A DNA stretch of 64,000 nucleotides. It comes from Candidatus Latescibacterota bacterium (GTDB lineage Bacteria > Latescibacterota > UBA2968 > UBA8231). The position numbers were made by a program, and so were the translations under genes. The stretch spans positions 960,001-1,024,000 of the forward strand of contig CBDCDC010000001.1 in assembly GCA_965215195.1 (NCBI GenBank), read 5' to 3'. Within the stretch, counting starts at the first letter, position 1, and each line of letters opens with the position of its first letter. Positions 36,553-62,501 of this stretch are shown in pieces. The notes under the pieces are model-generated. The model ran no database searches. It saw only the letters and a program-made list of their open reading frames with translations, and was not told where the DNA came from.

Positions 36553-38237
36553 CAGCTTTGGGCGGCGGTGTACTGCTTCAAATGGGATTCGTGGATGGTT
36601 ATCGGATAGATTTTACGCAGACTATGCATGTATTCGACGTAGCGGTGCTGGGCTTTGTCGATGAGCACGTAGGCCCGGGCACGTCGCTCTGAGTCCTCGT
36701 CGTAGGGGATGTGTTCTCGTTGGCGATCCACGACTTTGAATACCGAATAGCCTTGCTGGGTGCGGACCGGGCCGCCCACTTGGCCGACCGCGAGATCTTG
36801 GGCTAAGTCGGAGATGCCGGGGAAGAATTGCTCGGTATATATATTGAAATTGATGCGTCCGTTGTGGTGGAGGGCCTCGGCGCGTTCGCTGTGGCGCACG
36901 GCGAGGGTTTCGGCCTCGGCCTCCGTGGCTTGCGCTAGTTCGGTGAGCAGCCGCTGGGCTAACGAGTCGCTGGAGACTAGGATTTCGATGGCGACGGTAG
37001 TAGTGGGTTTGGTGAATTTCTCCGGGTGTTCGTCGTAGAAGGTGCGTGCCTCTTCTGGGGTGACCGACAGATGCTGGTCAACCATGATCTTGCGTAGGCC
37101 GGTGACCATGAGTTCTTGGCGCTTGGCGACTATACTAGCGCGGAATTCGGGGTCTTGGTCCAGCCCGGCGTTAATGATCTCAGACATGAACAGGTGTTCG
37201 GGGATAACCCGGCGGTTGAGCAATTCTGCGGCGCGCTCAGGATCGGTTAGCATTTGCGGGGCTATTTTCATCTGGCGGATGGTCTCGACGAATTTTCCTA
37301 GGCCGATGGGGTCTCCCTTGCCGAAGATGCAGACGGGCAAGGCGGCGTCGGCCTCGGCGAGAGCGAACTCCTCGCCTGTGAACTGGCCGATGCGCTCGGC
37401 CAACAGGGCGAGATTCTGCGACTGCGGTTGAGGATGGTACGCGCCCCGCAGCGAATCAAGCATGGTTTGCAGGCGCTGGTTGCGCTGGGCGATGAGCAAT
37501 TCTTCGCGGATGCGGGACTCGGAGGCTTCAAGTGGCGCGGGGATTTCGTCGAGGACGGTGAAGATGACAAACTTTTGCTCGCGGGCGATGGCCAGCGGCA
37601 TCGGCGGGGCGATTTCGCCGATTTCTAGGTCGCCGACTTCGGCTGCGACATCGGGCATGAGTTGGTCGCGCAACTGGTACAGCCCAGTATCACCGCCGCG
37701 TTCGGCACTTTCGCGGTGAGTCGAATGGATGCGGGCCAGTTGGTGGAAATCGGCACCGCCTTGGATCTGCTGGTAAAGGGCGTTGGCTTCTTCTTCGGTA
37801 TTGACCATGATGCCACCGAGACGTATTGAGCGGTCGCGGCGGGTTGCGCGGTAGTGGGCCTCGACCATTTCCGCGGTGATATTCAGCTTGCTGATGATCT
37901 CCCGTTGCTCGTAGAGGCGCAGGATGCGCGAGCGTTCATAATTAGTTAGCTCGTCGATAAACCAAACCATATTTTCGATGTTGGACGCTTCGGCTTCTTG
38001 TAGGAGTAACTCCTTGTCGATCAAGCTATTGAGCAGATTGCGGGCGATGGCCAGCGGCGTGGCCCCTTGGTGCATACCTTCGGGGATCAGGGCGGAGAAC
38101 TCGGCGAACTTAGCCGCGGTGATCGGCTTGTCGCCGACCTCGGCAACAACGAGTTCGGCCGGCGAGGGGGCCGGCGACTGATCTCCACAGGCGGCGAAGA
38201 GCCAACTGAGCAAGAGCAGGGCGTTAAGATGCTTCAT
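36552..38237 (-). CDS. SurA/PrsA-like peptidyl-prolyl isomerase lipoprotein (two parvulin-like domains)
   Basis: Lipobox LFAAC; GADFHQLARIHS..SAERGGDTG and LAVRHS..GPVRTQQGYSVF. Confidence 0.82.
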   Translation of the reverse strand: MKHLNALLLLSWLFAACGDQSPAPSPAELVVAEVGDKPITAAKFAEFSALIPEGMHQGATPLAIARNLLNSLIDKELLLQEAEASNIENMVWFIDELTNYERSRILRLYEQREIISKLNITAEMVEAHYRATRRDRSIRLGGIMVNTEEEANALYQQIQGGADFHQLARIHSTHRESAERGGDTGLYQLRDQLMPDVAAEVGDLEIGEIAPPMPLAIAREQKFVIFTVLDEIPAPLEASESRIREELLIAQRNQRLQTMLDSLRGAYHPQPQSQNLALLAERIGQFTGEEFALAEADAALPVCIFGKGDPIGLGKFVETIRQMKIAPQMLTDPERAAELLNRRVIPEHLFMSEIINAGLDQDPEFRASIVAKRQELMVTGLRKIMVDQHLSVTPEEARTFYDEHPEKFTKPTTTVAIEILVSSDSLAQRLLTELAQATEAEAETLAVRHSERAEALHHNGRINFNIYTEQFFPGISDLAQDLAVGQVGGPVRTQQGYSVFKVVDRQREHIPYDEDSERRARAYVLIDKAQHRYVEYMHSLRKIYPITIHESHLKQYTAAQS

Positions 38238-38376: not shown

Positions 38377-38478
38377 TAGTTGGCCTGCTAGGGGATTGCG
38401 CGGTGATAAGCTTCGCAGATGTGATGAACTTATTGAGTTTTTTTAGATCTGAATTCACTTGTCAACGAACTTTTGCCT

Positions 38479-40704
38479 ATGAAACGCATCAGTGTATATG
38501 CTCTCTTAGTGTGCTTGCTCGGGGGCCGGCCGGCCGGTGCTGAAGTCGTGATCGTCGGCGGCGAAGGCGGTTTGGATTGGGCCAGCGGCGGCGGCGAGAT
38601 ACAAGCGACGGTCATCCGCAGCGCGACTTCAGTGGAAAATACCAACGCGCCGGGTGGGGTCATTGACTTTCGTGCCGAGGGCTTCAACAACTGGATCTTT
38701 CCGCAACGCGCCGATACCACACTCAATATCGCTATCGGTGCCAATTCCGAGGCTCGCGGCGGCTCGATCACCTCGCCCAATACCATCAACATTCGGCCGG
38801 AGTTGCCCAATATCATCGACGGCGATGGTGAGACAGCACTGGATTTGCGCGCCAGTGCCGGAGGCCAGAGCGCACGCGTGTTGGGCATTATCATCGATCT
38901 AGACTTAGGTGCCCGTTTCGGGGTTAATCGCTTCAAGTTTTTTCCCCGCAACGCCGACCCGGCGTTCCCCGCTCCGGCGTTCCCATACCAGAACGATTTT
39001 ATGCGCGGCTTCGAGATATTCATCAACGACGGTACGCCCGAGACTCAGCGCGAGGGGGTGCCGATCCGCGAGACCGTAGTGCTGGCCAACCAGAACGAAG
39101 ACCCAGTAGTTGACGCGCATATCCCGCCTCAGTACGTGCGGTTCGTGCGGCTCAAGTCGCTGACGGCGACGGGCTTTGACTTGGCCGAGTTCCAAGTTTT
39201 TGGTACCGGCTTTGTGCCTGAGGCCCTCTATATCTCCAATGTCTTTGACTTCGGCGACCTGTCGCTCTTTGGAACGCTGCGCTGGGTCGAACAGAAGGTG
39301 GGCGATAGCGGACGGTCTCGGGTCTTGATCCGCACCCGCACCGGCAACGACCCGCAGCCGGTCGAGTACAACAAAATTCGCCCAGGCGAGCAGATTTTCC
39401 GCTTGGGTGGTGGGGCTAGCCAGACGGGTACCACGGCCCGCGGCGACGAAGTGCCGTGGAAATTCGCCGCCGACATCGAGGATACCGAGCTACAGACTCT
39501 GGTTGAGACGGTGCTCGATAACGAGGATGTCGACCTGCGCGAGGCGCTCCAGATATTCAAGGATCTGCCGCTGGAGCAGCAGGAGCAGATCTCGCTGACA
39601 GCCACCGACTTCGGCCGGTTGCGCAATGAGGACAAGGGCAATATTCGCAACGATGTGACCAATTGGAGTGCTTGGTCGCCGCCGTATCCAGTCAGTGCGC
39701 TGGTTGACTTGGACGCCGACTTGGCCGACGCATTCCTGGGGGTGCCGGTGGTCTCGCCGAGTCCGCGGCGCTATTTCCAGTTCTCAATTGAGTTCTTTAG
39801 CGACGAATTTGAGTCGGCCACTGGCGTTGGGGGGATTTCCTTTGAGGTACTGCCTTCGCCTTTTGCCGAGGAGTTAATCGCCGAGATCGTCCCGCGCCAA
39901 GCGGCGCTGGGCGAAAAGGCAGACTTTACCCTCGCCGTGTTGAGCAAACTTCGCCCGGGCCTTGACCGCGGTTTCAATCGGCTACAGGTCGATACCCCGC
40001 TCAAGGTCGAAAACGTAGGACTGGTGGAGGTTCGGCACCCAGACGGCACGGCGGATGAGGCCGACTTTAGCGGCGCGGTGCTCGACCAATTGCCGCTCCA
40101 GCGCGGCGATTTTGCAGTGGTTGAGGCTGCCGACAACAGCTTCATCTTTGAGTTCCCAATGGTCGCCGCGGATGGTACCGAGGTGCGGGTAACCTTCGAC
40201 AACGCAGTGCTGCGCTTCGGCACGACCTTTACGACGCGGGCGTTCAATTCGGGCGAGGAAGTGCAGATTGCCCAAGATGTGGTATCGGGCAACGCCGCCG
40301 ATCTGGGGGAAGCCGATCCGGACTTGCAGCCTTTGGGTACTCCTTTCAGTGGGAACCTCTCGGTGGCCGTGCCGATCGTCGGCGACCTACTGGTCAACGT
40401 GCGTGCGGTCCCCGGGGTCTTTAGCCCCAACGGAGACGGCATAAACGACCAAGCTGCGGTTCAGTACGACATCACCAATATTGCTCGACCGACCGATGTA
40501 GAAATCGTGGTGCTCGACTTGGCGGGGCGGCCGGTGCGGAAGCTCTACCGCGGACTCGACAGCAGCGGGCGCCACGCGCATCCTTGGGACGGCAAAAACG
40601 ACGCCGGGGAGGCACTGCCTCCAGGCAATTATCTGTTCAGAGTGACGCTGGATGCTGGCACTGGCCAGGAACGCGGCATCGGCATGGTCAGCTTGGCTTA
40701 TTGA
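38479..40704 (+). CDS. Secreted discoidin-like/Ig-like protein with C-terminal FlgD-Ig (FSPNGDGIND) domain; divergent member of the array family
   Basis: Signal peptide; IIDGDGET..IDLDLG..LAEFQVFG; RTRTG..WSAWS..RRYFQ; FSPNGDGIND..WDGKND..GNYL; ends SLAY. Confidence 0.8.
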   Translation: MKRISVYALLVCLLGGRPAGAEVVIVGGEGGLDWASGGGEIQATVIRSATSVENTNAPGGVIDFRAEGFNNWIFPQRADTTLNIAIGANSEARGGSITSPNTINIRPELPNIIDGDGETALDLRASAGGQSARVLGIIIDLDLGARFGVNRFKFFPRNADPAFPAPAFPYQNDFMRGFEIFINDGTPETQREGVPIRETVVLANQNEDPVVDAHIPPQYVRFVRLKSLTATGFDLAEFQVFGTGFVPEALYISNVFDFGDLSLFGTLRWVEQKVGDSGRSRVLIRTRTGNDPQPVEYNKIRPGEQIFRLGGGASQTGTTARGDEVPWKFAADIEDTELQTLVETVLDNEDVDLREALQIFKDLPLEQQEQISLTATDFGRLRNEDKGNIRNDVTNWSAWSPPYPVSALVDLDADLADAFLGVPVVSPSPRRYFQFSIEFFSDEFESATGVGGISFEVLPSPFAEELIAEIVPRQAALGEKADFTLAVLSKLRPGLDRGFNRLQVDTPLKVENVGLVEVRHPDGTADEADFSGAVLDQLPLQRGDFAVVEAADNSFIFEFPMVAADGTEVRVTFDNAVLRFGTTFTTRAFNSGEEVQIAQDVVSGNAADLGEADPDLQPLGTPFSGNLSVAVPIVGDLLVNVRAVPGVFSPNGDGINDQAAVQYDITNIARPTDVEIVVLDLAGRPVRKLYRGLDSSGRHAHPWDGKNDAGEALPPGNYLFRVTLDAGTGQERGIGMVSLAY

Positions 40705-40736
40705 GGCACGGGCCTTTTTTGGAACGAGGGAGAGCA

Positions 40737-43541
40737 GTGTTGAAAGCGATGCGGAGTCTTGCAGTGATCGGTGCTTTACTAGGCCTAACCCCGGCGCATG
40801 GGCAGGAGGACTATCAGGCTCGGCTAGGGGTACAGCGGGGTGGTGCTGTCAGTTTTGAGCCTATCGGCCCGGGAGTATTATTTGGCGCACTCGACCCGAC
40901 CGTCAAAAAGTGGTACGTGCCGCAGGAGCTGTACGTGGACTACGGTTGGCGTCAATGGGAATACTCCAACTACGCCCGCACCCCGTATGAGCGCTACGTC
41001 AACACAACCCGCGAGGGTGCTTACTTCTACGATGTGTACGGCAACTTCACCACCCATGGTTGGCTGATCTACGACTGGCGTCAAGACCAGCCGTTGCCCT
41101 TGGGCAGTGGTATCTTCCAAGGTACGCGTTTTAATACTTGGTTCAATGCAGTGACCATCAGCGGTGATTCGCAAGGGCAGTACCACTACGCGATCACGGT
41201 CGGCGACCGGATCCGCACGACCTTGACGCCGATGACCTTTTCCAAGCCGGACTTCAATGGGGTGCAGGTGGATTTTGCCTCAGACAAGTACCAAGCGACG
41301 ATCCTCGCCTCGCGCATCAGCGAGCCGATCCGAGGCTCCTCGCAGGGCCTCGGCGGCAGCACCGAGCCGGTGACCCAGACCAACACGACCTCAATGTTTG
41401 GTGGGCGGGCGACGTTCCAGGTCGGCGACTTCATCACGCTGGGAGCCACGCTAGTTGATGCCCGCAACGCCAATACCACCCTCGATCTCTTCGCTGGCGA
41501 CCTGATCGCTGGCAGCCTCACGGCTGGGCAAAGCACGACCCCCCTAACGGCTATTGCGGTGATCCTCAGCGACGATTCGCCCGCAGACAACGAAGGGGGC
41601 GCAGCCCTGTTTAGCCACGACGTGCGGATCACCAGCCGCGACTTCGACACCGGCAAGGAGACGGTTTCTACCCTGCAGGAGGTGGTCCGCCCCGGTGCGC
41701 AGTGGCCGGTCCTCTTCGGGGGATTTCGGCGGCCGGGCTTTCTGGCCGCGGACGGTCCAGAGCGGATCATCGTCAACTACGACTTCAACGACCCGGCCTA
41801 CGTGGGCCCGGATCCGACGACCATTGTCGCGGTGGACTTCAACTACGTGCTGGCCAACGACTTCAAGGTCGAGATGTGGTCCGACCGCCAGACAGGTCAG
41901 CGGGCGGTCCCGGCGGCCCCGCTGACTAGCGAAGTAATCGACAATAGCCAGCCGGCCTTTGTGGTACTCCGGCGCGCCGAGGGCAATGTAAAAGACATCT
42001 CCAACTTGCAGCGCATCAAGTTCGACTATGGCTTGCCGACAGCCAACCTAATCGGCGGCTTTACTATTGAAGGTGCCGACGCATTTGGCTTCGACTTCTA
42101 CGGCGAGTGGGATCGCAACAAGCGCTATGCTCAGTACCCCAATGCCGCGCTCTTCAACGAGGGGAAGAAACACGCGATCTCCTCCGAGGCATCCGACGCT
42201 TGGCACTTCAATGTCTCGCGCAATGTGTTCCCCTACTTCCTCTACGGCGAGGCCTACGCCATCGATGAAGCCTATTCGACCACCACCTTTCTGGTCAATG
42301 CCAACGGCGACGTGCAATACGACAATAGTCAGCGACACTTCTACGAATTCGTCGATGACAATGACGACCAAGACCGTTTCCCTGACTGGGTTCGCTTCGG
42401 CACGATCAACGACCGGGCAATCTACCCAGGTTGGGACCAGAACAACGACTTCATCTCGGATTTCAACCAGAATGACAACGCCACCGTGGGCAATATCACC
42501 CCCGACTACGAGGAGCCGTTTCTGCGCTACAACGTCGATCGGCCGGAGTTTCTCTTCGGCATTGACCTCAACAACAACAATTGGATCGACCGCTTTGAGG
42601 ACGACGACTTGCCCGATTTCCCTTATAAACCCGATCGGCGGGGGTTTAATGTCTTCGGGGGGGTGCATTTGATGCCGGAGGCTCGGCTGATCGTCGGCCG
42701 CACGGACGAGGAGTCACAGACAACCGACGCGACTAACGTGACCAACTACGCGATGTTCGCCTTCGACAAGAACTATTCGGGCTTGGGACGCCTGCGGGTC
42801 TTCGATATGATCAAGCAGGCTAAGGACACCATACCTGATGCCCGCCGCGAACCTACGCCCTTTGAGGGTGCGCCGATCCAGCCAGTAGTCCGCGATATTC
42901 TTCCGGCGCAGGACACTTGGATCAACACTGCCTTCGTGCAGTTCGACTACAAGGGTATCGAGGGCTTGAACGTGGTCAACAAGCTCAAGTGGGAGACCTT
43001 CAGCCAGAACCAAGCCGAGACTCGCGATGCTAACGGCCGCCTGATGGAGGACGAAGCCAGCTTTTTCGGCTTGATCAACAAGGTTGACTACACCTACGGC
43101 TTGGGGCGTTTGGACTTGCAGCCGAGACTCAAAAGCGAACTTCTGCGCCAGACAGCCTTTCTGGTCGCAGAAGACGATCGCAAGGAATGGACGGCAACGG
43201 CGCAGTTAATAGCGACCTTGCCAGTACTCCGCCACACGATTGTTCAGGCCGGGCTGGAGCAGTTGTGGTTCAGTAACCAGAGCTTGGACGAGGATGCCCT
43301 TATTGCGGCTGGTCGCCAGCAGGAGACGGGCGACCTGAGTTCGACCAATGTCGCCGTACAGATCTCGACCACCTCGGATTATCTGGGCTACCGGCTGACG
43401 ACCCAGATTGGCCTGCGCTACGGCCGGATCTTCACCGAACAGGTGATCGAGGACAGCGACCGTCTGGGTACCTTTGTGATTGGCGATGAGAGCAGCAACG
43501 AGACGACCAGTTTTATTACGGTCTTCGCCGGGCTAGAGTGA
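40737..43541 (+). CDS. Large exported protein, probable outer-membrane beta-barrel with acidic Ca-binding-like loops (paralog 1)
   Basis: Signal peptide (PAHG-Q); DDNDDQD, DQNNDFISDFNQN, IDLNNN; alternating beta-strand pattern near the C-terminus, ending FITVFAGLE; start uncertain (40737/40749). Confidence 0.65.
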   Translation: MLKAMRSLAVIGALLGLTPAHGQEDYQARLGVQRGGAVSFEPIGPGVLFGALDPTVKKWYVPQELYVDYGWRQWEYSNYARTPYERYVNTTREGAYFYDVYGNFTTHGWLIYDWRQDQPLPLGSGIFQGTRFNTWFNAVTISGDSQGQYHYAITVGDRIRTTLTPMTFSKPDFNGVQVDFASDKYQATILASRISEPIRGSSQGLGGSTEPVTQTNTTSMFGGRATFQVGDFITLGATLVDARNANTTLDLFAGDLIAGSLTAGQSTTPLTAIAVILSDDSPADNEGGAALFSHDVRITSRDFDTGKETVSTLQEVVRPGAQWPVLFGGFRRPGFLAADGPERIIVNYDFNDPAYVGPDPTTIVAVDFNYVLANDFKVEMWSDRQTGQRAVPAAPLTSEVIDNSQPAFVVLRRAEGNVKDISNLQRIKFDYGLPTANLIGGFTIEGADAFGFDFYGEWDRNKRYAQYPNAALFNEGKKHAISSEASDAWHFNVSRNVFPYFLYGEAYAIDEAYSTTTFLVNANGDVQYDNSQRHFYEFVDDNDDQDRFPDWVRFGTINDRAIYPGWDQNNDFISDFNQNDNATVGNITPDYEEPFLRYNVDRPEFLFGIDLNNNNWIDRFEDDDLPDFPYKPDRRGFNVFGGVHLMPEARLIVGRTDEESQTTDATNVTNYAMFAFDKNYSGLGRLRVFDMIKQAKDTIPDARREPTPFEGAPIQPVVRDILPAQDTWINTAFVQFDYKGIEGLNVVNKLKWETFSQNQAETRDANGRLMEDEASFFGLINKVDYTYGLGRLDLQPRLKSELLRQTAFLVAEDDRKEWTATAQLIATLPVLRHTIVQAGLEQLWFSNQSLDEDALIAAGRQQETGDLSSTNVAVQISTTSDYLGYRLTTQIGLRYGRIFTEQVIEDSDRLGTFVIGDESSNETTSFITVFAGLE

Positions 43542-43560
43542 TATGAGACGAGGGCGAACG

Positions 43561-46518
43561 ATGTTGAGACGCACGGCGATTTTCGTCGTTCTATCCTTGG
43601 CGCTGGGCGAAGCGAATGCTCAGCGCATGGATTACGGCAACCGCGTGGGGCACCGCGTGGGCGAACAAGTGCGCTACTCCTCGGTCGGCGCAGCGGTCGA
43701 TATGGACGTGTTAGACCCAACGGTCATGCGCTGGTACATGCCGCAGGAGCTCTTCAGCGAATACGGACGTCGCCAATGGAGCTACACCAACTACGCCAGA
43801 GAACCCTACCGCCGCTACCTAGACCGCAATCTCGATGGCAACTACTTTTACGACGCCTATGGGGATTTTATCACCCGCGGCTACGTCATCTACGACTGGC
43901 GCCAGATCCAGCCGCGTACTTTCGAGAGCAGCTCTATCACTAAGACAGGCCGCTACGCGAACTGGTTCAACCGTTTAATTATCACTTCAGACCAAACCAG
44001 CACCTATAGCTACTCAATTATCGTCGGCGACGAGATTCGCACCACGTTGACGCCGATGACCTTCAATAAGGTTGGTTTCAACGGGGTGGTGACCAACTTC
44101 GCGGCGGGTCGCATCCGGGCTACGGGCCTGTTTTCGCGGGTGACCCTGCCCATCATCCATATTGACGCGGATGTGCCGACAGCCTCGTTGGAGAACTTTT
44201 CCAACTTGGCAGCCGGCCGTCTTGAACTTGATGTGGCCGACCAAGCAACCTTGGGGCTGACGTTGGTCAACGTTCACAACGGCAACGGCGTACGCGAAAG
44301 TTTCCAGGGTAACCCACTCAAAGGCCAGTTGACTTCGGGTCAGCTCGACCGCCAATTGAACCTGCTGGTAGTCAGGCTTGCGGATGATTCGCCCGAAGAT
44401 GGTGAAGGCGGTGCGGTGCTCTTCAGCGACGACGTGGAAATCGCCACCACTCTGCTCCGCGAGGTCGCAGTGGGTGACAGCGTACAGCTAGTAGGGCGCG
44501 ATACCACCATCGTCGGTAGCGGCATAGGCTTTCGCCCGGTGCGCGATGGGGGCGAGCTCCGCGACGGCTTTTTGCGCGCCGATGGCGCAGAGAGCATCGT
44601 GCTCAAGTACGTGCTGGCACCCGAGGATGATGCCTCTGAGGAAGGCTCCCTGCGCTTGCTTTTGCAGCAGAGGCTAGGGCTGACTCTGGCAGAGGCCGCC
44701 GACGCGGTCTCCGCGATCAAAAGCGTGAGATTCCGCTTGGTGCTGGCCAACGACTACCGGGTGGAGGTGTCGTCCGATCGCCAGACCAATCGCTCGGGCC
44801 AGCCGCAATTTATTGTCATGGAGCGGGCACCGGGCAATATCAAGAACGAACTCAACCAGCGCGAAGTCGTCATCGACTACGGCCTGCCGACGGCCAGCCA
44901 GATCTTCGGAGCTAGTGCTGAGCTGCGCGACTTTTACGGCTTCGACTTCTACGGCGAGTTCAACGTCAGCAACCAGTACCGGCAATATCCCTCAATCAAC
45001 CGCAAAAAGCACAAGAGTTTCTCGGGCATCGTCGACGACGAGGCCGCACTCGGCTGGATGTTCAACTTGGCGCGGAAGTCCGGTCCGTGGCTGCTCTTTC
45101 TGGAGGGCTTCGGCATGGACGAGATGTATTCTACCAGTGTGCTGCCGGTCGATGGCCGCGGCGTGGCCGACTACTCGCCTCAAGCCACCAACCTGCTCTA
45201 CGATTTAGTCGACGACAACGATGACCACGACCGGCACCCGGACCAATTGCGGATTTTTCAGGGGAGTTTGATCCCGCCGCAGACTACCTCAATCAGCAAC
45301 TTCACGGTGACTTCCGAGGGGGTAGCCGACCCGGCGGTTTTCCCCGGCTACGACGAAAACGGTGATTTTATCTCTGATTTCAACCAGAACGGCAATGGCG
45401 ACACGGAGAATCTTTTTCCCGACTACGAAGAGCCTTTCCTGCGCTATCACTCGGACCGACCAGAGTTCCTCTTTGGCATTGACTTGAACAACAACGGATG
45501 GGCCGAGCGCTTTGAAAACGACGATTTGCCCGACTATCCCTATAAGAAGGACCACTGGGGCTACAACGCCTACGCCCGAGTCCAAGTCAATCCAAAGGTG
45601 CGCCTGACGGGCGGTTTCCTCTATCAGGATCAGCGCGAAACCGATCGCCGCAATGAGACGGCCTATGGAATTTTGACCTATCAGCAGACTTGGCCCACTT
45701 GGGGCTCCTTGCGGGTCTATGACATGCTAAAAAGGGCTGAGGATACCATCCCCGACCCGCTCTCGCAGTGGATCCTACCCGAGCTAGAGTTGGGTAGTGT
45801 CGTCGAAGAAGTCAGTGGGCGCAACGTCTCGGTACCCGACCTTTTGGCCGCTGAGGACACTTGGATCAATACGTTCTATGCAGACTGGGAGTATAATAGC
45901 CCGCGACGCTGGGCCACGCGGCACCGCTTCAAGTGGGATTGGTGGCACCAGCGCAACGCGGACGCGGTCTTCTCCCTCGACGAGACCGGGGAGAGGATTC
46001 TCGATGTGGAGGGGGATCCGGTGGTGCTTTTCGACCCGCTCGGTCCCGAAGGGCGCAATGGCCGTAAGACCGCGGGCTTCATTGGGCTAATCGACAAAAT
46101 TAGCTACGCCTTTAACTGGCGACGGCTGTGGCTTTCACCTAGGTTCAAAAGCGAATTTCTACGCCAAGTGCCATTTAACCGCGACTTGGCTAAGCGGCGC
46201 TCTTGGGACGCCTTGTGGTCGTTCTTGGTGCGCTTTCCGCTCTTAGTGCGCTCCAGTGTTGACCTCGGCGTTGAACAGCGCCAGTTCTACAATCTCATAG
46301 CCGACGAGGATAAACTGGCAGCAGGGGAGCGAACCGGAGACTTCAGAGGCACGGTCTTGGCCGTGCAATTAACCAATCGCAGGGATTACTTGGGCTACGA
46401 ACTTACTGCCCAGCTCGGCCTGCGCTACGACCGACGTGCGCTCGAAGTTGTCGATGGTGACGCTGAGACGCGCACGGCGGGGCTGGCCTTCCTTTCGGTT
46501 TTCGCCAGTCTGAGGTAG
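43561..46518 (+). CDS. Large exported protein, probable outer-membrane beta-barrel (paralog 2)
   Basis: Signal peptide (EANA-Q); shares LDPTV..WY.PQEL, IRTTLTPMTF, DDSP.D.EGGA, DYGLPTA, PDYEEPFLRY..DRPEFLFGIDLNNN with paralog 1; ends FLSVFASLR; alternative start 43543. Confidence 0.65.
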   Translation: MLRRTAIFVVLSLALGEANAQRMDYGNRVGHRVGEQVRYSSVGAAVDMDVLDPTVMRWYMPQELFSEYGRRQWSYTNYAREPYRRYLDRNLDGNYFYDAYGDFITRGYVIYDWRQIQPRTFESSSITKTGRYANWFNRLIITSDQTSTYSYSIIVGDEIRTTLTPMTFNKVGFNGVVTNFAAGRIRATGLFSRVTLPIIHIDADVPTASLENFSNLAAGRLELDVADQATLGLTLVNVHNGNGVRESFQGNPLKGQLTSGQLDRQLNLLVVRLADDSPEDGEGGAVLFSDDVEIATTLLREVAVGDSVQLVGRDTTIVGSGIGFRPVRDGGELRDGFLRADGAESIVLKYVLAPEDDASEEGSLRLLLQQRLGLTLAEAADAVSAIKSVRFRLVLANDYRVEVSSDRQTNRSGQPQFIVMERAPGNIKNELNQREVVIDYGLPTASQIFGASAELRDFYGFDFYGEFNVSNQYRQYPSINRKKHKSFSGIVDDEAALGWMFNLARKSGPWLLFLEGFGMDEMYSTSVLPVDGRGVADYSPQATNLLYDLVDDNDDHDRHPDQLRIFQGSLIPPQTTSISNFTVTSEGVADPAVFPGYDENGDFISDFNQNGNGDTENLFPDYEEPFLRYHSDRPEFLFGIDLNNNGWAERFENDDLPDYPYKKDHWGYNAYARVQVNPKVRLTGGFLYQDQRETDRRNETAYGILTYQQTWPTWGSLRVYDMLKRAEDTIPDPLSQWILPELELGSVVEEVSGRNVSVPDLLAAEDTWINTFYADWEYNSPRRWATRHRFKWDWWHQRNADAVFSLDETGERILDVEGDPVVLFDPLGPEGRNGRKTAGFIGLIDKISYAFNWRRLWLSPRFKSEFLRQVPFNRDLAKRRSWDALWSFLVRFPLLVRSSVDLGVEQRQFYNLIADEDKLAAGERTGDFRGTVLAVQLTNRRDYLGYELTAQLGLRYDRRALEVVDGDAETRTAGLAFLSVFASLR

Positions 46519-46531: not shown

Positions 46532-48274
46532 ATGAGCGGTGTTTCTACGGTGCAAGGCTGGATCATCAATCGCGGCTACGATGCAATTTTTTTTATTGGT
46601 ACGCCGTTTTTGTCGCTAGTCGCGTTGCTCGTCGCCTCACAGTACTTCAGTTCGGCCAACATTGCTTGGTTCGTGTTGGCGTTCTTTGCGGTGGGCCACC
46701 ACTTACCCGGTTTCATGCGTGCCTACGGCGAAAGAGAGCTTTTCGACCGCCATAAGACAACCTTCCTCGTCTCTCCGCTAGTGGTAACCGCCTTCGTAGC
46801 TTGGAGTGTATTCAACGGCTATCTGGGCTTCTTCATCTTCTTAGCCCTATGGGATCTGTGGCATTTCTTCATGCAGCACTACGGCTTCATGAGGATCTAC
46901 GATGTCAAACGCCGAAAGCCCTCCCGCCTCAGCGCACGGCTGGACTGGTGGCTGACGGCCTTTTGGTTTGGCTATATCATCATCGACAGTCCCCATTACT
47001 TGATCAATTTCCTCGAGCGCTGCCACCGCTACGGCTTCGGCCTCTACACTTGGATTACACCGGAGTTTCTCTTAGAGCTTAGAGAGTGGGTTTTCTATCT
47101 GGCCCTCGGAATAGCCTTCCTCTACGTAGTAAACATGGTCGGAGAACGGGCGCGGGGCATACCAGTAGTTTGGCCGAAGTTGGCAATTTCGCTTACGACC
47201 TTCGCCACCGTTTATTATGCCTATATTGTCCTCGAAGACATCATTCTCGGCTACGCGATTACGGCCTTGGCTCACGATATTCAATACTTTGCCATCGTCT
47301 GGATTTACAACCACGGGGTGCTCAAGCGCTCGCAGGAGTTGGGCACGTCCTTCTTCCGCTTCTTGTTTTCCGACGGCCGCTTCCGCATCGTATTGTTCTA
47401 TGTGATTCTGATTTTGGCTTATGGCGGAATTGAGGCCCTAGCCCGAGCGACAGAGAACTATCTAATATACGATGTGGTTAAGGTCATCATCGCCGCTTCA
47501 GCTTTTTTGCATTACTACTACGACGGTTTTATGTGGAAAGTGCGAAAAAAAGAGATACGCCAGAACTTCGTCGCCGGGGATGAGGGCGAAGCGATCTCGG
47601 TGAGGCGCAAGGGGCTACGCGAAAAGCTACAGGAAAGCGTCGGGTGCTGGGTGGGGTTGCGCTATGCATTCGAGACAGGGCGACAAGTGCTCTACTTTGG
47701 CGTACCCATTCTCTTTTTGGCTTGGAGCGATGCCACCTATTCGGTGTCGGATCTGGAAGTAGGAGAATACATGGCGCGAATGACGCCGAACGTGGGCAAA
47801 ATCCACGACGCCTTGGGCAGGGCCTACGTACAGCAAGGCCAGTACGATCGCGCGATAGAAGAGCACCAAAAAGCGGTGGACTTGGAGCCTGAATTCGCAC
47901 CGGCCTATACCCATCTCGGCATCGCCTATTCGCTATCTGGCGACTCGGACCGAGCCATAGAACTCCACCTCAAGGCCATCGACTTAGAGCCAGAAATGGC
48001 CCAGGCCCATTACAATCTAGGCGTGGATTATTGGGGAATGGGCAAGCTAATCGAGGCGGAGCGGGCTTTCAAGCGGTCAATTGAAGAGGATAGCCAGTAT
48101 ATTCGCGCATATAAAGCCCTATCTCAAGTGTATAGAAAACAGGGAAATAGAGCAGAGTATGTCAGAATTTCCGCCCTAGTCCGCGACCTAGAAAAGGCGA
48201 CTCAACGCAGGGAGTTGAGCCGCAGCGCGATGCCGTGGGCTACGGGCACTGCACTAGCCGAGAACACCCGCTGA
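46532..48274 (+). CDS. Polytopic membrane protein with His motifs and C-terminal TPR repeats
   Basis: Many TM segments; GHH, WHFFMQHYG, AHDIQY, LHYYYDGFMW; about four TPRs (e.g. AYTHLGIAY, AHYNLG). Confidence 0.8.
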   Translation: MSGVSTVQGWIINRGYDAIFFIGTPFLSLVALLVASQYFSSANIAWFVLAFFAVGHHLPGFMRAYGERELFDRHKTTFLVSPLVVTAFVAWSVFNGYLGFFIFLALWDLWHFFMQHYGFMRIYDVKRRKPSRLSARLDWWLTAFWFGYIIIDSPHYLINFLERCHRYGFGLYTWITPEFLLELREWVFYLALGIAFLYVVNMVGERARGIPVVWPKLAISLTTFATVYYAYIVLEDIILGYAITALAHDIQYFAIVWIYNHGVLKRSQELGTSFFRFLFSDGRFRIVLFYVILILAYGGIEALARATENYLIYDVVKVIIAASAFLHYYYDGFMWKVRKKEIRQNFVAGDEGEAISVRRKGLREKLQESVGCWVGLRYAFETGRQVLYFGVPILFLAWSDATYSVSDLEVGEYMARMTPNVGKIHDALGRAYVQQGQYDRAIEEHQKAVDLEPEFAPAYTHLGIAYSLSGDSDRAIELHLKAIDLEPEMAQAHYNLGVDYWGMGKLIEAERAFKRSIEEDSQYIRAYKALSQVYRKQGNRAEYVRISALVRDLEKATQRRELSRSAMPWATGTALAENTR

Positions 48275-48427: not shown

Positions 48428-49354
48428 ATGAGAAAATTGTTAGCTTTCGCCGCCACGGCGTTGATGCTGACTAGCACGGCTAGCCTCGCCCACTTTCCAG
48501 AAGGCCAGATCTTCGGGGCGTGGCAGTGGCCGTCGACCCATCTTCCTAACTTGGATGGCGACATCTCCGAGTGGAATGTGCTACCGGATGAGCTGTGGAT
48601 CGACATCTTCCAGACGGAAGTCGCCGAGGGCGATATCGGTCGCGAGATCGACACTGCCAATCTCAACTTCCGCGTCGCTGTTGGTTGGAACGACGAACTG
48701 GACCGCATCTATTATGTCTATGACCGCTTCGACGACATTTGGGATCGCGATGCCGGCGGCTTTGGCTGCTGCGGCCAAGATGACAGCATCGAGATTTTCC
48801 TCGACGCCGACCATAGCGCCGACCGCTTCGCCTTTTGGGATGGCGACTACGAGGACCCGGAGGAACGCGCCCGCAACAACGGCCGCACCAACCAGACGGG
48901 GCACTACCGCTGGCCGGCTCTCGAGCCTTTTGGCTTCTACTGGTTCTGGCTGAGTAGCTCAACTTGGCACGACAAAGAGCCTTATTCGTGTTGCCCGACC
49001 TCCTTCAATCTCGATGGGGCCCACGGCACCGAGGCCAACTTCCAAGCCGAGTGGTACACGGTTGGTTGGGATGATTTTGATCACAACAGCCCCGAAAACA
49101 GCATCCTCCACGATTTTGTCGAGGGAGAGATCATCGGCGTTGGTATCCAAGTCGTCGATAACGACAACGGCCCGAGTTCGGATGATCCTCGAACCGCCAA
49201 GTGGGCGCTGGGCGGTCAGCCCTGCATCAATGGCGACGGTGCCTGCGGCAGCGACTACATTTTGCTGCCGGTCCAAACCGATCTACTGCCGGATCAGATG
49301 TCGGCTATCGAGGGCAATAGCTGGGGCCACATCAAGGCTTCGTTCGGCCAATAG
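48428..49354 (+). CDS. Secreted CBM9/DOMON-like protein with SWGxIK C-terminal motif
   Basis: GGAGG RBS, signal peptide (ASLA-H); PNLDGDISEW, GWN..RIY, DSIEIFLDAD, IGVGIQVVDND; tail SAIEGNSWGHIKASFGQ. Confidence 0.72.
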   Translation: MRKLLAFAATALMLTSTASLAHFPEGQIFGAWQWPSTHLPNLDGDISEWNVLPDELWIDIFQTEVAEGDIGREIDTANLNFRVAVGWNDELDRIYYVYDRFDDIWDRDAGGFGCCGQDDSIEIFLDADHSADRFAFWDGDYEDPEERARNNGRTNQTGHYRWPALEPFGFYWFWLSSSTWHDKEPYSCCPTSFNLDGAHGTEANFQAEWYTVGWDDFDHNSPENSILHDFVEGEIIGVGIQVVDNDNGPSSDDPRTAKWALGGQPCINGDGACGSDYILLPVQTDLLPDQMSAIEGNSWGHIKASFGQ

Positions 49355-49382
49355 GCGCGAACAACTAGCAGTTTTACTAATT

Positions 49383-49419
49383 AAGGAGGGAGGGTAGAGT
49401 TGCTCTACCCTCCCTCCTT
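49383..49419 (+). terminator. Perfect 17-bp hairpin (terminator or mRNA-stabilising stem)
   Basis: aaggagggagggtagag-ttg-ctctaccctccctcctt, followed by gtatttat. Confidence 0.75.
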
Positions 49420-49467
49420 GTATTTATGTATGATATGTACATTCTACAAACCTTGGGGATAGCGAGC

Positions 49468-51393
49468 ATGAGGAGAGGCTTATGGCTTTGGGTGCTTTGG
49501 GTGGCGATAGGATGGAGTGGGCGTAGCGGTGCGCTGACCGTTTACCGCATCGGCGCAGCGGATTTGCCCGCGCCCGCGTTGGATGTACCCTATCAATTTG
49601 TTCAGCTCGAATGGGAGGCCATAGATGCCAAAGCGCACGGCAGCGCGATACAAATGGCGCTCGGCCCCAATGGGATCATGCCGCAGCAGCTAGACCCGAC
49701 AGTCAACTTGACGCCTCTTTTGGACGAACGCGGCGGCCGGATTGAGACTTTGCAGACGATAGTCGGTTTTGCTCGCTTTCCGGCCCGCGATGCGCCGATG
49801 TTCGATGGCGATCCGACGACGCACTTTCTCGGCGATGGCGACTGGGGCGGTGATTACGGCCGGGTCAAAAACAAGCTCCTGATCTTCGACTTGGGTGGCA
49901 ACTTCATCGTCGATCGCATCAAGTTTTACCCCCGCGAACGCTTTCTCGACACCCGCTTCATTGAGCGCTTTGTTATCGGCATCAGCGATGGCGACCCACT
50001 CAAGGAGAATACGCGCGAGTACGTCGTTGGTGGAGAGGGCGGCCAGTTCCGCGATTACGATGTGGTGTACAACATCACCGAAAACACGCAGTCGGTGATC
50101 GAGCTGAGCATCCCGGATGCGCCTATCCGCCAACTCATGTTTGAGGCACCGCCCAACACCCGTGGCGTTTGGGAGATCGCCGAGTTTGAACTCTACGGCA
50201 TCGGCTTCGCGCCCGAGAGCCAGTACACAACCAACGTCATCGACTTAGGCGGCATGGTGAGTTTGGGCGACCTAACGTGGTCGGGGGAAGCCGAGGGGAG
50301 GGCAAAGGTGGCGATAGCGATGCGCAGCGGCGATGACGACGATCCCAATACCTATTGGCGCCTGACCTTTCGCGGCGACGAGCGCAGTCGCTTCGGCACC
50401 AGCGGCACCGCCTTGACGCTCAGCACGTACAACAAATTGGAAAAGGGCGAGAAGGCTGGAATCACGCCCGATACCGAAAACTGGTCCGACTGGAGCCCAC
50501 CATACAACTTCGCCGCCGGAGAGGATGTGCTGCTGGCGGATAGACCGCGTCGCTACGTGCAGTTCAAGGCCGATTTCACTGCACAGAAAGAAGCTGGTGG
50601 GCGTCTGGATTTTTTGCAGTTCAGTGTCTCGAATCCGCCGGTGGCTAGCCAAGCCTTGGCCGAGATCGGGCCGGCGAGTGCCCGTGCCGGAGAGGTGACG
50701 TCTTTTACTTATGCGATTCTGCCTCAGTTGCGCGACGAGGATTTGGGATTTGATACTATTGAGATTGAGACCCCAGTTGAGGTTGCGAGTATTGATGCGC
50801 TACGGATCGATAGCCAAGAGGCCAGCTTTGTTGTTGTGCGCTCGGACGCACGAGGATTCGCGCTGCGGATCCCGCGCATGGATCCGCAACAGACGGGCGA
50901 ACTAATTGAAATTGACTTTGCGGTGGCAGTGTTCAAGTTCGGGACGGTGTTCACCGGGAGGATCTCCGACAGCGAGAAGCCCTTTGAGGTGCGGCAGGCA
51001 CTGACCGCCGGCAACGCCGATCCACTGGTAGAGAGCAACTCCCTGAGCGTAGGGCTGGTCAATGTGGAGGAGAAGACGGTCAATGACCTCAAACTGTCTT
51101 CGCCGGTGTTTACGCCCAACGGCGACGGAATCAATGACGCCCTCGAGATTGAATACGAACTGTTGAATCTCTTCGGCGCGGTCCCGGTGGCACTGGATCT
51201 ATACGATCTGTCGGGGCAGCGGGTAGGGATGGTGCATCGGGGAACGGCGGCGAGCGGCCGATTCGCACTGACGTGGGACGGAGTGCTAGCGAATGGTGCT
51301 GTGACAGCACCGGGGCTGTATTTACTGCGATTGGAAGTTGACAGCGACCAAGGTAGGGAAGCGCGTCAGCGCGTCATTGCCTTGGCCTATTGA
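49468..51393 (+). CDS. Array protein A1: secreted discoidin-like + Ig-like + FlgD-Ig
   Basis: Signal peptide, LTVYRIG, FDGDPTT, IFDLGG, WEIAEFELYG, FTPNGDGIND, ends ALAY. Confidence 0.85.
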   Translation: MRRGLWLWVLWVAIGWSGRSGALTVYRIGAADLPAPALDVPYQFVQLEWEAIDAKAHGSAIQMALGPNGIMPQQLDPTVNLTPLLDERGGRIETLQTIVGFARFPARDAPMFDGDPTTHFLGDGDWGGDYGRVKNKLLIFDLGGNFIVDRIKFYPRERFLDTRFIERFVIGISDGDPLKENTREYVVGGEGGQFRDYDVVYNITENTQSVIELSIPDAPIRQLMFEAPPNTRGVWEIAEFELYGIGFAPESQYTTNVIDLGGMVSLGDLTWSGEAEGRAKVAIAMRSGDDDDPNTYWRLTFRGDERSRFGTSGTALTLSTYNKLEKGEKAGITPDTENWSDWSPPYNFAAGEDVLLADRPRRYVQFKADFTAQKEAGGRLDFLQFSVSNPPVASQALAEIGPASARAGEVTSFTYAILPQLRDEDLGFDTIEIETPVEVASIDALRIDSQEASFVVVRSDARGFALRIPRMDPQQTGELIEIDFAVAVFKFGTVFTGRISDSEKPFEVRQALTAGNADPLVESNSLSVGLVNVEEKTVNDLKLSSPVFTPNGDGINDALEIEYELLNLFGAVPVALDLYDLSGQRVGMVHRGTAASGRFALTWDGVLANGAVTAPGLYLLRLEVDSDQGREARQRVIALAY

Positions 51394-51395
51394 GG

Positions 51396-53330: not shown

Positions 53331-53333
53331 AAG

Positions 53334-55934: not shown

Positions 55935-55944
55935 AGGAAACATA

Positions 55945-58557: not shown

Positions 58558-58584
58558 CTCTTTTTCTCCAGCGGAGGGAGTACT

Positions 58585-60546: not shown

Positions 60547-60556
60547 GGAAGATGCG

Positions 60557-62488: not shown

Positions 62489-62501
62489 AGGGCGAGATAC
62501 G

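Follow-up and report, generated by a model that had tools for sequence, protein, structure and literature searches.

Genes and features of the locus

The window is the whole stretch of DNA analyzed, 64,000 nucleotides from a Candidatus Latescibacterota bacterium (contig CBDCDC010000001.1, positions 960,001 to 1,024,000). Two tandem genes, A and B, encode large proteins that are predicted to form outer-membrane barrels. They and the other features are, in window positions:

36552..38237, − strand: SurA-like periplasmic chaperone, divergent, 561 aa, SurA_N and two parvulin PPIase domains
38473..40704, + strand: U, 743 aa, secreted beta-sandwich chain, directly upstream of barrel A
40737..43541, + strand: barrel A, 934 aa from GTG 40737 (ATG at 40749), first-position pair member, about 28 predicted transmembrane strands
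40893..41084, + strand: aromatic N-terminal block of A, residues 53–116, with DPTVKKWYVPQEL, YSNYARTPYERY and YDWRQ
41571..41600, + strand: acidic turn DDSPxDxxGG of A, residues 279–288, the longest inward turn
42264..42635, + strand: acidic insert of A, residues 510–633, forming outward loop 8 (from strand 15 to strand 16)
43543..46518, + strand: barrel B, 991 aa, second-position pair member, start 2 nt past the stop of A
45118..45552, + strand: acidic insert of B, residues ~526–670, placed by BLASTP alignment with A
46532..48274, + strand: 580-aa polytopic membrane protein, TPR repeats towards the C-terminus
48428..49354, + strand: K, secreted CBM9-like protein, 308 aa from ATG 48428
49382..49420, + strand: 18-bp perfect stem-loop with a T-rich tail, between K and the tailed-gene array
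49426..63998, + strand: array of seven U-related genes (Pfam), six complete, each with a T9SS-tail match
49426–51393, 51390–53330, 53334–55934, 55897–58557, 58585–60546 and 60356–62488, + strand: the complete array genes
62502 onward, + strand: array gene ended by the window edge before its C-terminus

The open reading frames of A (40584/40737–43541) and B (43543–46518) lie on the + strand. The tandem paralog pair proposed in the preliminary description was borne out by BLASTP, in which A and B aligned over both whole lengths with 399/1020 identities (39%; 624 bits, E reported as 0.0). The acidic blocks quoted there (VDDNDDxDRxPD and PGxDxNxDFISDFNQN) were found in both translations, and the block PDYEEPFLRY..DRPEFLFGIDLNNN.W.RFE.DDLPD.PYK.D and the N-terminal aromatic blocks (WYxPQEL, YxNYARxPYxRY, and YDWRQ) are present as well. 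The blocks are kept well beyond the A/B pair, down to 22–27% identity in a 68-sequence alignment. A mature Gln start, also proposed earlier, is plausible for both proteins, with a cleavable signal peptide ending in AHG before QEDY in A and in ANA before QRMDY in B; among 51 paralogs, the aligned column is Q in 17, in a region where the alignment is unreliable. The C-terminal strand motif F-I/L-T/S-V/I-F/Y-A-G-L was recovered in most of these paralogs, as judged by eye without a count.

The divergent chaperone gene is assigned by its Pfam matches (Rotamase_2 2.5e-21, Rotamase 2.1e-18, and SurA_N_3 1.5e-4) and falls in a BLAST cluster of 30 paralogs located within 8 genes of barrels, five of which were checked with Pfam. 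The TPR protein matched TPR_11 (4.9e-19) and related models at residues 418–554 and has at least four hydrophobic segments in its N-terminal 300 residues; related TPR proteins downstream of other barrels gave weak PMT_2 matches. K has 45 paralogs in the genome and matched no Pfam or NCBIfam model; in its nearest Atlas clusters, 13%, 37%, and 100% of the members have CBM9_1. The hairpin at 49382–49420, unique in sequence in the genome, may serve in termination or in RNA stability. With that exception, scans for promoters and terminators gave about what chance predicts (4 found vs 4.7 expected, and 13 vs 12.0).

U combines a CBM32/discoidin-like module with a T9SS type-B-like C-terminal domain. 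The domain matched FlgD_ig (1.1e-9) and CHU_C (2.6e-7) in Pfam and TIGR04131 in NCBIfam at 25.4 bits, below the cut-off of 35. Against the PDB, the U-family profile matched the FlgD Ig domain (4.7e-9), the PorU C-terminus (6.9e-4), CBM32 (2.5e-4, to 4a41 over profile positions 96–208, and 6.3e-4), and galactose-oxidase N-domains. The AlphaFold model of U is a beta-sandwich chain (pLDDT 85.2, pTM 0.76), for which Foldseek returned galactose oxidase, C5a peptidase Ig domains, and RbmA. CHU_C and/or FlgD_ig is found at the C-terminus of all seven complete tailed neighbours (U and six array proteins), and weak F5/8 type C matches, with scores below the Pfam cut-offs, occur in 3/7 array genes.

T9SS machinery is encoded elsewhere in the genome. 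PorU was detected above the cut-off (628.6 bits), adjoining the best PorV-like gene (147.6 bits, below the cut-off) on another contig. SprA_N occurs in a separate 1969-aa ORF; SprA/Sov proteins have about 2000–2400 residues. PorU was above the cut-off in 5/5 barrel-bearing genomes tested vs 0/5 barrel-less genomes of the same class. By their C-terminal domains, and with a T9SS in the genome, the neighbouring U-type proteins qualify as predicted T9SS cargo, of either type A or type B given the TIGR04131 score below its cut-off.

Fold, topology, and conserved segments of the barrel family

The AlphaFold model of A is confident and all-beta (pLDDT 83.4, pTM 0.82), with long antiparallel strands over residues 104–932. 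Foldseek gave 74 matches at E <= 0.001, with SlpA, LptD, MtrB, FimD, and porins as the best; among the matches listed, all were outer-membrane barrels. The matches are generic and none is specific (TM-scores <=0.26). With VIA-align, the model was matched to SlpA at Z 15.1 (441 aligned, rmsd 8.6), to SprA at Z 13.2 (365 aligned, rmsd 11.8), and to MtrB at Z 11.5 (426 aligned, rmsd 8.3).

Strands were counted by DSSP and loop parity, not read from coordinates, which gave approximately 28. By parity, there are 13 inward connections of 2–8 residues each, of which 10 are identical in length across 51 paralogs and the remaining three vary by 1–4 residues. On the outward side, 12/14 connections vary in length among the same paralogs (e.g., 38–183, 27–102, and 1–33 residues). 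This alternation of turn and loop lengths is as expected of a barrel and supports that reading. A and B are thus predicted to be very large outer-membrane beta-barrels of about 28 strands with both ends directed inward. To our knowledge, a strand number of 28 has not been seen in any solved structure, and the family would add a new size class to outer-membrane biology.

Neither protein matched a Pfam or NCBIfam family at E <= 0.01, and the best sequence match in the PDB was an unrelated methylase at E 0.014. In line with the plug and POTRA domains missed in the preliminary description, no Plug, TonB-receptor, POTRA, SprA, or PorV model of Pfam or NCBIfam matched A or B; Plug (PF07715), TonB_dep_Rec (PF00593), and a TonB box are lacking in both. 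The genome has 16 PF00593 matches in about 15 ORFs, all at loci other than the barrels. TonB-dependent receptors appear among the fold matches at Z 8.4–11.2, below SlpA, porins, and SprA, and the receptor barrel has 22 strands vs the approximately 28 predicted here.

Several specific identities were rejected. For SprA/Sov, A and B contain no SprA_N (PF14349), and the match to 6h3i (Z 13.2, 365/2124 residues) is generic. For PorV, which is a barrel of about 370 residues encoded beside porU, neither protein gave an NCBIfam match (NF033710), and for PorP/SprF neither matched PF11751. PorP_SprF was not found in the genome at all, a weak blank, since control genomes gave no match either. An SlpA-type identity was dismissed as there is no SLH match in A or B, and SlpA, though the best fold match, has a TM of only 0.26. 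Matches to DUF5916 (PF19313) and DUF6029 (PF19494) at E <= 10 all lie at other loci in the genome. Alignment of the barrel-family profile with a DUF5916 protein by hhalign gave a probability of 0.3%, and the DUF6029 lead (Atlas similarity 0.89) was discarded, its sole genomic matches being elsewhere. Omp85, BamA, TamA, and two-partner identities, which call for POTRA domains and a 16-strand Omp85 barrel, were set aside because A and B have no POTRA or Omp85 Pfam match; the fold matches to CdiB, FhaC, BamA, and TamA (Z 9.7–11.9) cover part of the A model only.

With FimD usher, CdiB, FhaC, and SprA among the fold matches, the barrels could be imagined as dedicated export or assembly pores, i.e., private usher-like or two-partner-like channels that mount the beta-sandwich neighbours, with the SurA-like protein as chaperone of the latter. 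The private chaperone gene and the tight genetic coupling of barrel and cargo would fit such a role. It is very unlikely, however, given that the cargo is already T9SS-tailed in a genome with PorU, PorV-like, and SprA-like genes, that A and B have neither POTRA nor the usher plug, N-terminal, and C-terminal domains, and that the fold matches do not exceed TM 0.26.

The earlier proposal of a novel outer-membrane family is upheld by the fold, for which all the matches listed were outer-membrane barrels, by the turn/loop alternation, and by the absence of Pfam, NCBIfam, and PDB sequence matches. Every named homolog in public sources is annotated as 'hypothetical protein', and literature searches on T9SS of Latescibacterota/Gemmatimonadota and on 28-stranded outer-membrane barrels returned no description of the family among the papers listed, as judged by titles and the openings of abstracts. 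In PMC12993501, the terms 'outer membrane', 'secretion system', 'TonB', and 'FlgD' do not occur.

While the outward loops generally vary in length, the acidic insert (loop 8) is an exception and the best-conserved part of the family. Its mean majority-residue fraction is 0.62, vs 0.47 and 0.40 for the barrel halves, and the top four 15-residue conservation windows all lie at A residues 537–630 (51 paralogs of one genome). It has about 125 residues (119–157 aa in these paralogs), and loop parity places it on the outward side. By DSSP, the insert of A is coil with three short helices (pLDDT 61–95 over 541–640). It contains three Asp/Asn-rich Ca-loop-like motifs (541–552, 567–579, and 610–621); B has the same motifs and an extra stretch of about 20 residues between the first and the second. 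In the 68-sequence alignment (A numbering), D567 and D610 are invariant, and conservation is at least 90% at D541, N542, D543, D544, D546, D550, D571, D575, N579, P589, D590, E593, P594, F595, N612, N613, N614, D618, E621, D623, D627, Y630, and D633.

In the 12-residue EF-hand loop, positions 1, 3, and 5 are D or N, position 6 is G, position 8 is hydrophobic, and position 12 is E or D. Residues 610–621 of A (DLNNNNWIDRFE) fit this consensus at positions 1, 3, 5, 8, 9, and 12; D610 is invariant, N612, N614, D618, and E621 are conserved at 90% or more, and position 6 is G in the consensus of the family. Scanned as separate segments, neither insert (A or B) nor the N-terminal block matched any Pfam family at E <= 10, Ca-binding models included. 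Ca binding by the insert, as suggested earlier, is inferred at the level of motifs. Docking of the array proteins on the insert, also suggested earlier, would fit the outward position of the insert by loop parity and the genetic tie between array proteins and barrels, although neither observation demonstrates contact.

Two further segments of A stand out. The acidic turn DDSPxDxxGG has 7–8 residues in 51/51 paralogs (conservation 0.74), with D279 and S281 invariant and D280, P282, D284, and G288 at least 90% conserved in the 68-sequence alignment. The aromatic N-terminal block lies before strand 1 and then runs into it with low model confidence (pLDDT <50 at residues 16–34, 36–52, 61–73, and 85–91; conservation 0.52 over residues 26–103). 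This block may be periplasmic or a plug.

Cassette organization and possible function

A and B are a matched pair of an undescribed barrel family, which is the fixed centre of a cassette that is repeated about 38 times in the 6.13-Mb genome, where the family has 53 matches. The gene-neighbourhood searches that had been suggested found tailed genes beside barrels, within the genome and in others. A tailed protein was located within 6 genes of 50/52 called barrels (26% background) and a K-type protein within 6 genes of 34/52 (9.5% background), counts that rest on crude ORF calling and on paralogs and relatives that are not independent. Conversely, a barrel was located within 6 genes of 104/136 U-type proteins. 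Immediately upstream, 29/52 barrels have a tailed-protein gene and 10 more have another barrel gene. CBM9-like proteins, SurA-like chaperones, or TPR proteins are encoded in many cassettes as well. At 65 related loci in other genomes, a U-type gene is directly upstream in 61, two barrels are present in 62, and a SurA-like gene in 54. Adjacency of barrel and tailed genes recurs in other families of the phylum. In the distant genome G003, K or DUF6785 was nearby at the four barrel loci examined, and a tailed protein at none of them.

In six pair cassettes, the first-position barrels form one clade (SH-aLRT 89) and the second-position barrels another (99) with matching internal branching; the pair was therefore inherited as a unit. 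Three triple cassettes gave three position clades (SH-aLRT 100, 100, and 99).

The family comprises 688 representatives at 50% identity, with up to about 90 first-look barrel candidates per genome, and in the present genome its 53 matches outnumber the 16 TonB-dependent receptor matches by more than 3:1. Several related records bear MAG names, and one of the sequencing runs holding part of the stretch is labelled as a sponge metagenome; no RNA run was listed among 22 runs.

These copy numbers bear on the idea of a general structural porin, in which the barrels would be abundant wide diffusion pores or envelope ties, like SlpA of Deinococcus, and the neighbours would be loosely related. SlpA is indeed the best fold match (Foldseek E 5.6e-9; VIA-align Z 15.1, 441 aligned), but the TM to it is 0.26, SLH domain and coiled coil are missing, and 53 diversified copies, each locked to its own lectin/chaperone set, are a misfit for a general porin, which makes this explanation highly improbable.

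Judged from gene neighbourhood and fold, the cassette could serve as a surface capture/uptake hub, a reading that is plausible though short of probable. The T9SS would export the tailed lectin-like proteins, which would remain on the cell surface next to the barrel they belong with and, together with the CBM9-like K, catch a glycan-type ligand. The barrel or barrel pair would be the outer-membrane passage for the caught ligand, forming a Sus-like unit from different parts. The Ca-stabilised insert might act as a constant structural core (lid, constriction, or docking face), while variable outward loops and diversified lectins would set the specificity. The lumen may be open, or plugged either by the insert or by the N-terminal block. 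Folding and membrane insertion of such large barrels may be assisted by the SurA-like and TPR proteins. An adjacent ExbB/ExbD motor, encoded after the barrels of the deepest cassette type in three genomes, could power the uptake step there.

The uptake hub is favoured by the CBM32, F5/8 type C, and CBM9-like matches and by uptake hints in the neighbourhood, namely ExbB/ExbD after the barrels of the deep type and, near cassettes, several sugar ABC-transporter genes and 19 polytopic membrane proteins of the DUF6785/DUF6784 kind. Known barrels of similar size pass or house large substrates. Against it, A and B have no Plug or TonB box and the window cassette has no ExbB/ExbD, the lectin calls are weak (E ~1e-4, and F5/8 type C below the Pfam cut-offs), and the four G003 loci are devoid of tailed proteins. 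When 116 other neighbour proteins were scanned, one glycoside hydrolase (GH5) was found and the rest were a mixed set. The typical enzyme complement of a polysaccharide-utilisation locus is missing on that count, and a locus of this type with enzymes was rejected; the same count weighs against the hub.

Alternatively, the barrels might be cargo-specific partners that only anchor the T9SS-exported lectin-like proteins on the surface, doing for type-B tails what PorP/SprF does, at a far larger size. Nothing would then pass through the barrel, and the cassettes would mediate adhesion, e.g., to glycans of a host or of particles. The position of the tailed gene directly upstream of barrels, here and at the related loci, fits an anchor, as does the occurrence of PorU in barrel-bearing genomes. 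The tails match the type-B model (CHU_C/TIGR04131) and no other tail model, and the most conserved part of the barrel (insert) and of the cargo (tail) could be a docking pair. A complex prediction of barrel A (residues 95–934) with the U tail (640–743) scored 0.00 in two runs whose controls were not folded, and is evidence neither way. PorP/SprF proteins have about 300 residues, and some 930 residues in about 28 strands far exceed what an anchor needs. The TIGR04131 score is under its cut-off, and the failure to find PorP_SprF, which would also suit an anchor, carries little weight given the blank control genomes. Transport is suggested by the ExbB/ExbD genes that accompany the deep cassette type and by membrane transporters in the vicinity of other cassettes, and the G003 barrels have no adjacent tailed genes at the four loci examined. 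On balance, a pure anchor is somewhat unlikely.

A bolder version of the uptake hub would be an obligate hetero-oligomeric 28-strand machine with a dockerin-like, Ca-loaded insert into which lectin-like and CBM9-like proteins plug, yielding a cellulosome-like array on a TonB-plug-free import pore that was driven by ExbB/ExbD in an ancestral three-barrel form. It is distinctly unlikely, and if true it would be a third independent outer-membrane solution for nutrient capture beside TonB-dependent receptors and SusCD.

Comparison with known systems

The family, unnamed in Pfam, NCBIfam, and PDB, marks a database gap. The barrels and their cassette partners take a visible share of the coding capacity in uncultured marine Latescibacterota/Gemmatimonadota. 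The function of the cassette, once known, would clarify how these bacteria interact with their environment or hosts. New here are the position clades of pairs and triples, the test of a 28-strand topology, and the location assigned to the insert.

SlpA of Deinococcus radiodurans is a 30-strand barrel. As the best fold match and a very large single-chain barrel, it resembles A, but it differs in identity (10–12%, TM 0.26), in gene context, and in its SLH and coiled-coil parts, which are absent here. LptD and MtrB, whose barrels of 26 strands enclose a partner protein, belong to a similar size class (LptD at Foldseek E 6.8e-8; MtrB at Z 11.5, 426 aligned) and suggest the idea of a large barrel sheathing a partner; A and B, however, have no LptD/OstA or MtrB sequence match and no LptE or cytochrome neighbour.

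DUF5916 proteins, for which we know of no function, likewise combine a CBM9-type module with a large outer-membrane barrel, and fused CBM9_1 and DUF5916 proteins occur in this genome (2/2 tested). Here, in contrast, K is a separate gene, the DUF5916 matches lie at other loci, and no barrel homology is detectable. The SusC/SusD-type polysaccharide utilisation loci of Bacteroidota are similar in that a large outer-membrane barrel family has expanded to tens of copies, every one tied to genes that encode ligand-binding proteins of the surface. Unlike SusC, the present barrels have neither Plug nor TonB box, and a 22-strand receptor domain is probably absent; their putative binding proteins have T9SS tails and are not lipoproteins, and there is no regular set of glycoside hydrolases.

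In Flavobacterium johnsoniae, SprB is a T9SS type-B cargo with SprF as its cognate PorP/SprF outer-membrane protein. Common to both systems are a secreted protein with a type-B-like tail encoded beside a dedicated barrel gene, many such pairs per genome, and the presence of the T9SS. The barrel here is, however, about 930 residues long with some 28 strands and no PF11751 match, it comes in fixed pairs or triples, and CBM9-like, SurA-like, and TPR proteins are further members of its cassette; the tail scores under the curated TIGR04131 cut-off. The barrel family is new and the kind of system is known, and the family would extend the principle of a T9SS cargo with a private outer-membrane partner past Bacteroidota.

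Barrel family and its acidic loop

Genes A and B of the window encode very large outer-membrane barrels of a new family, in which an acidic outward loop is conserved. The two genes were delimited as follows:

40584/40737–43541, + strand: ORF of barrel gene A, GTG at 40737 taken as start, 934 aa
43543–46518, + strand: barrel gene B, 991 aa, starting 2 nt past the stop of A

The start region of A also contains an ATG (40749) with a Shine–Dalgarno-like GGGAG just 5' of it, and the signal peptide is the same from either start. The preliminary description had proposed diverged tandem paralogs with shared blocks. This was borne out: the proteins aligned end to end by BLASTP (399/1020 identities, 39%, 624 bits), and all the blocks quoted were found in both translations. 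In an alignment of 68 sequences, with identities down to 22–27%, D567 and D610 of the acidic insert (A residues 510–633) were invariant and more than 20 further insert residues were at least 90% conserved. In 51 paralogs of the window's genome, the four 15-residue windows with the highest conservation lay within A residues 537–630, and the mean majority-residue fraction was 0.62 in the insert vs 0.47 and 0.40 in the barrel halves. Since conservation extends far beyond the A/B pair, that of the paired blocks is far above chance.

Neither A nor B matched a Pfam or NCBIfam model at E ≤ 0.01, and A, B and the family profile had no sequence match among solved structures. The AlphaFold2 model of A (68-row alignment; pLDDT 83.4, pTM 0.82) consisted of long antiparallel strands over residues 104–932, with low confidence over the N-terminal 100 residues and with coil and three short helices at residues 540–633. 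The fold matches listed by Foldseek and VIA-align were outer-membrane barrels. Those listed by Foldseek were SlpA (E 5.6e-9), LptD, MtrB, FimD and porins, with TM-scores vs the query of at most 0.26 throughout, and those from VIA-align were SlpA (Z 15.1, 441 aligned, rmsd 8.6), CymA (13.5), SprA (13.2) and MtrB (11.5). The model shows A as a large outer-membrane barrel without a specific relative, and this barrel-type result, combined with the lack of Pfam, NCBIfam and PDB sequence matches, upheld the earlier proposal of a novel outer-membrane family. A role as a general porin was considered improbable. No description of the family was found in the literature searched.

From the DSSP string of the model, rather than from coordinates, 28 strands were counted in A. 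Connections were set inward or outward by parity from the C-terminal strand, and their lengths were compared over the 51 paralogs. All 13 inward connections had 2–8 residues (10 of fixed length in every paralog, three varying by 1–4 residues), and 12 of the 14 outward ones were of variable length (e.g., 38–183, 27–102 and 1–33 residues). Alternating short-fixed and long-variable connections are a known signature of bacterial outer-membrane barrels, and the unbroken alternation supports the even count of 28 strands predicted for A. The large barrels known from solved structures have 22, 24, 26, 30 or 36 strands; a 28-stranded outer-membrane barrel was not found in the literature searched. The longest inward turn, DDSPxDxxGG (A residues 279–288, window 41571–41600), was almost invariant across the family and nearly fixed in length. 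Such an acidic turn would not be expected on the periplasmic side; it might be a contact for the chaperone, a TPR protein or a motor protein.

The same parity alternation placed the insert outward as loop 8, joining strands 15 and 16. It was the one long outward loop both conserved (0.62) and near-constant in length (119–157 residues in the 51 paralogs). Three Asp/Asn-rich motifs were found in it, of which 541–552 and 567–579 resemble DxDxDG-type loops. In the third, 610–621 (DLNNNNWIDRFE), positions 1, 3, 5, 8, 9 and 12 agree with the consensus of EF-hand loops. Each of these was conserved to at least 90%, if not invariant, and position 6 is G in the family consensus. Scanned on its own, the insert had no Pfam hit up to E 10; from its motifs, Ca binding may reasonably be inferred.

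A word-index search yielded 1193 relatives among 8000 candidates scored, 'hypothetical protein' being the only name that any source gave them, and an exhaustive search gave 688 representatives at 50% identity. The named members came from Gemmatimonadota and Latescibacterota MAGs, with one distant cluster labelled Ignavibacteria/Bacteroidota. Within the phylum, the family was present in 95 of the 151 sampled genomes, including 64/64 from the window's own family and 0/30 and 0/18 in two other families.

Inheritance in pairs and triples

The barrels are inherited in pairs or triples. In a tree of the 51 paralogs (quick IQ-TREE search), the six pair cassettes gave a first-position clade, which includes A (SH-aLRT 89), and a second-position clade, which includes B (99), with identical internal branching. 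The three triple cassettes formed three position clades (100, 100 and 99). Triple-cassette barrels, two barrels lying 4 kb apart and one single made up a deep sister group of 12. The mirrored first- and second-position clades reflect one old tandem duplication, followed by duplications of the whole pair with both members retained each time.

Related loci in other genomes (65 evaluable) had two barrels in 62 cases, a gene of the type of U (tailed beta-sandwich protein, 38473–40704) directly upstream in 61 and a SurA-like gene in 54, the latter lying between both barrels in 21. Tandem pairs and triples occurred in distant families of the phylum as well. There, the barrels of G009, G015 and G006 again follow a gene for a tailed protein (U-type, with a T9SS-like C-terminal domain), and tail matches lie, by coordinates, just upstream of barrels in G014 and at a single locus of G003; at four further G003 barrel loci, K (CBM9-like protein) or DUF6785 was present and a tailed protein was absent.

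In one cassette of the window's genome and in G015 and G006, the deep type with three barrels is followed by a very large TPR protein (1090–1181 aa, with repeats like those of YfiO), DUF5683, a small one of 123–148 aa (fn3-like in the copies of the window's genome) and ExbB, then one or two ExbD. The gene runs were:

12955–19005: locus L172
15122–19966: locus L171
14956–19811: locus L147

The ExbB/ExbD run is a possible private motor for this cassette type.

Genes accompanying the barrels

The barrels are tightly linked, genetically, to lectin-like proteins with T9SS tails, a CBM9-like protein and chaperone or TPR genes of their own. In the window's genome (6.13 Mb, 2 contigs), 53 barrel matches fell into 38 loci. 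Genes were called crudely, as longest ORFs weighted by GC3, and neighbours were labelled by searches seeded with window proteins. A tailed protein lay at most six genes away for 50 of the 52 called barrels (background 26%) and a K-type protein (300 residues) for 34/52 (background 9.5%); conversely, 104 of 136 U-type proteins had a barrel no more than six genes away. Immediately upstream was the gene of a tailed protein for 29/52 barrels and that of another barrel for 10 more. The genes immediately downstream encoded SurA-like proteins with a double parvulin, two kinds of TPR protein (very large ones, and ones with a polytopic N-terminus, some of which matched PMT_2 weakly), FG-GAP/ASPIC proteins and polytopic membrane proteins of the DUF6785/DUF6784 type. 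BLAST clustering placed 30 SurA-like proteins (five checked by Pfam), 19 DUF6785-type proteins (one checked) and 15 lipoprotein-like proteins (~250 residues, no Pfam match) at most eight genes from barrels. In five of the single-barrel cassettes listed (e.g., C2:1172338 and C2:3072348), a lipoprotein-like protein of 240–279 aa lay between K and the first tailed gene, and one inspected copy had a lipobox-like AAGGC. This protein, one of the 15 paralogs, is probably a further fixed component of the single-barrel type.

U was modelled as a chain of beta-sandwich domains (pLDDT 85.2) resembling galactose oxidase N-domains, C5a-peptidase Ig domains and RbmA. The U-family profile matched CBM32 modules (E 2.5e-4 and 6.3e-4) and also FlgD/PorU C-terminal domains. 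K (48428–49354) was CBM9-like in the Atlas. The 116 other neighbours were mixed, including ABC sugar/peptide transporters, oxidoreductases, restriction enzymes and one GH5; this does not make a classical enzyme-rich utilisation locus.

T9SS components were found in the window's genome: PorU (628.6 bits) adjoining a PorV-like gene, and an ORF of 1969 aa with SprA_N. That the barrel itself is an export pore was given little probability. In a small, non-independent sample, PorU was above the cut-off in 5/5 barrel-bearing genomes from other families, and only a sub-threshold PorU-like match was present in 5/5 barrel-less genomes. Barrel-less G007, G028, G051, G057 and G063, of the window's class, each had one ORF of 1874–1991 aa with a partial sub-cut-off PorU sortase match, which may represent a different C25-type peptidase architecture.

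Further features were observed in the window. A hairpin at 49382–49420 (perfect stem of 18 bp, loop of 3 nt, T-rich tail) separates the K gene from the first tailed-array gene. It is the sole strong hairpin in 38000–50000 and unique in the genome, and may divide the cluster into two transcription units or protect the RNA upstream of it from decay. Tailed-array ORFs overlap as listed, by 38 nt (55897–55934) and 191 nt (60356–60546); the real start of the 60356–62488 gene is probably further downstream, because the aligned signal peptide begins ~90 residues in. Upstream of the SurA-like gene, 33398–36552 (− strand) encodes two proteins, one of the FG-GAP/ASPIC-UnbV type (540 aa) and one with pentapeptide repeats (510 aa, two C-terminal hydrophobic segments). 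Both types recur by other cassettes, e.g., at L137 (630-aa pentapeptide protein) and L105 (FG-GAP protein). A complete 2-oxoglutarate dehydrogenase set (26941–32491, − strand; E1 972 aa, E2 399 aa, E3 465 aa) is ordinary housekeeping and forms the left border of the cassette region.

Possible function and known systems

Capture and uptake is our tentative reading. The T9SS would export the tailed proteins, which would remain on the surface next to their own barrel; the cassette set would bind a glycan-type ligand for which the barrel would be the passage. The insert would supply a constant core; specificity would come from the variable loops and the lectins. The insert may also be a docking site for the array proteins, as the preliminary description suggested. 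Arguments for uptake are the size of the barrels, the pattern of their amplification, the modules resembling carbohydrate-binding ones and the neighbouring ExbB/ExbD and transporter genes; the lack of a plug, TonB box and enzyme set and the weak lectin scores speak against it. In the main rival reading, somewhat less probable, the barrel would be a pure anchor for the tailed proteins, an oversized counterpart of PorP/SprF.

The Pfam/NCBIfam domains defining PorP/SprF and SusCD were searched for and did not place the barrels in either group. DUF5916 proteins of the window's genome, in which a CBM9 domain is fused to a barrel, echo the separate K and barrel genes, and their barrels have no detectable relation to the A/B family. 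In its proposed working, the system comes closest to type-B cargo of the T9SS that has its own PorP/SprF partner, or to a SusCD unit.
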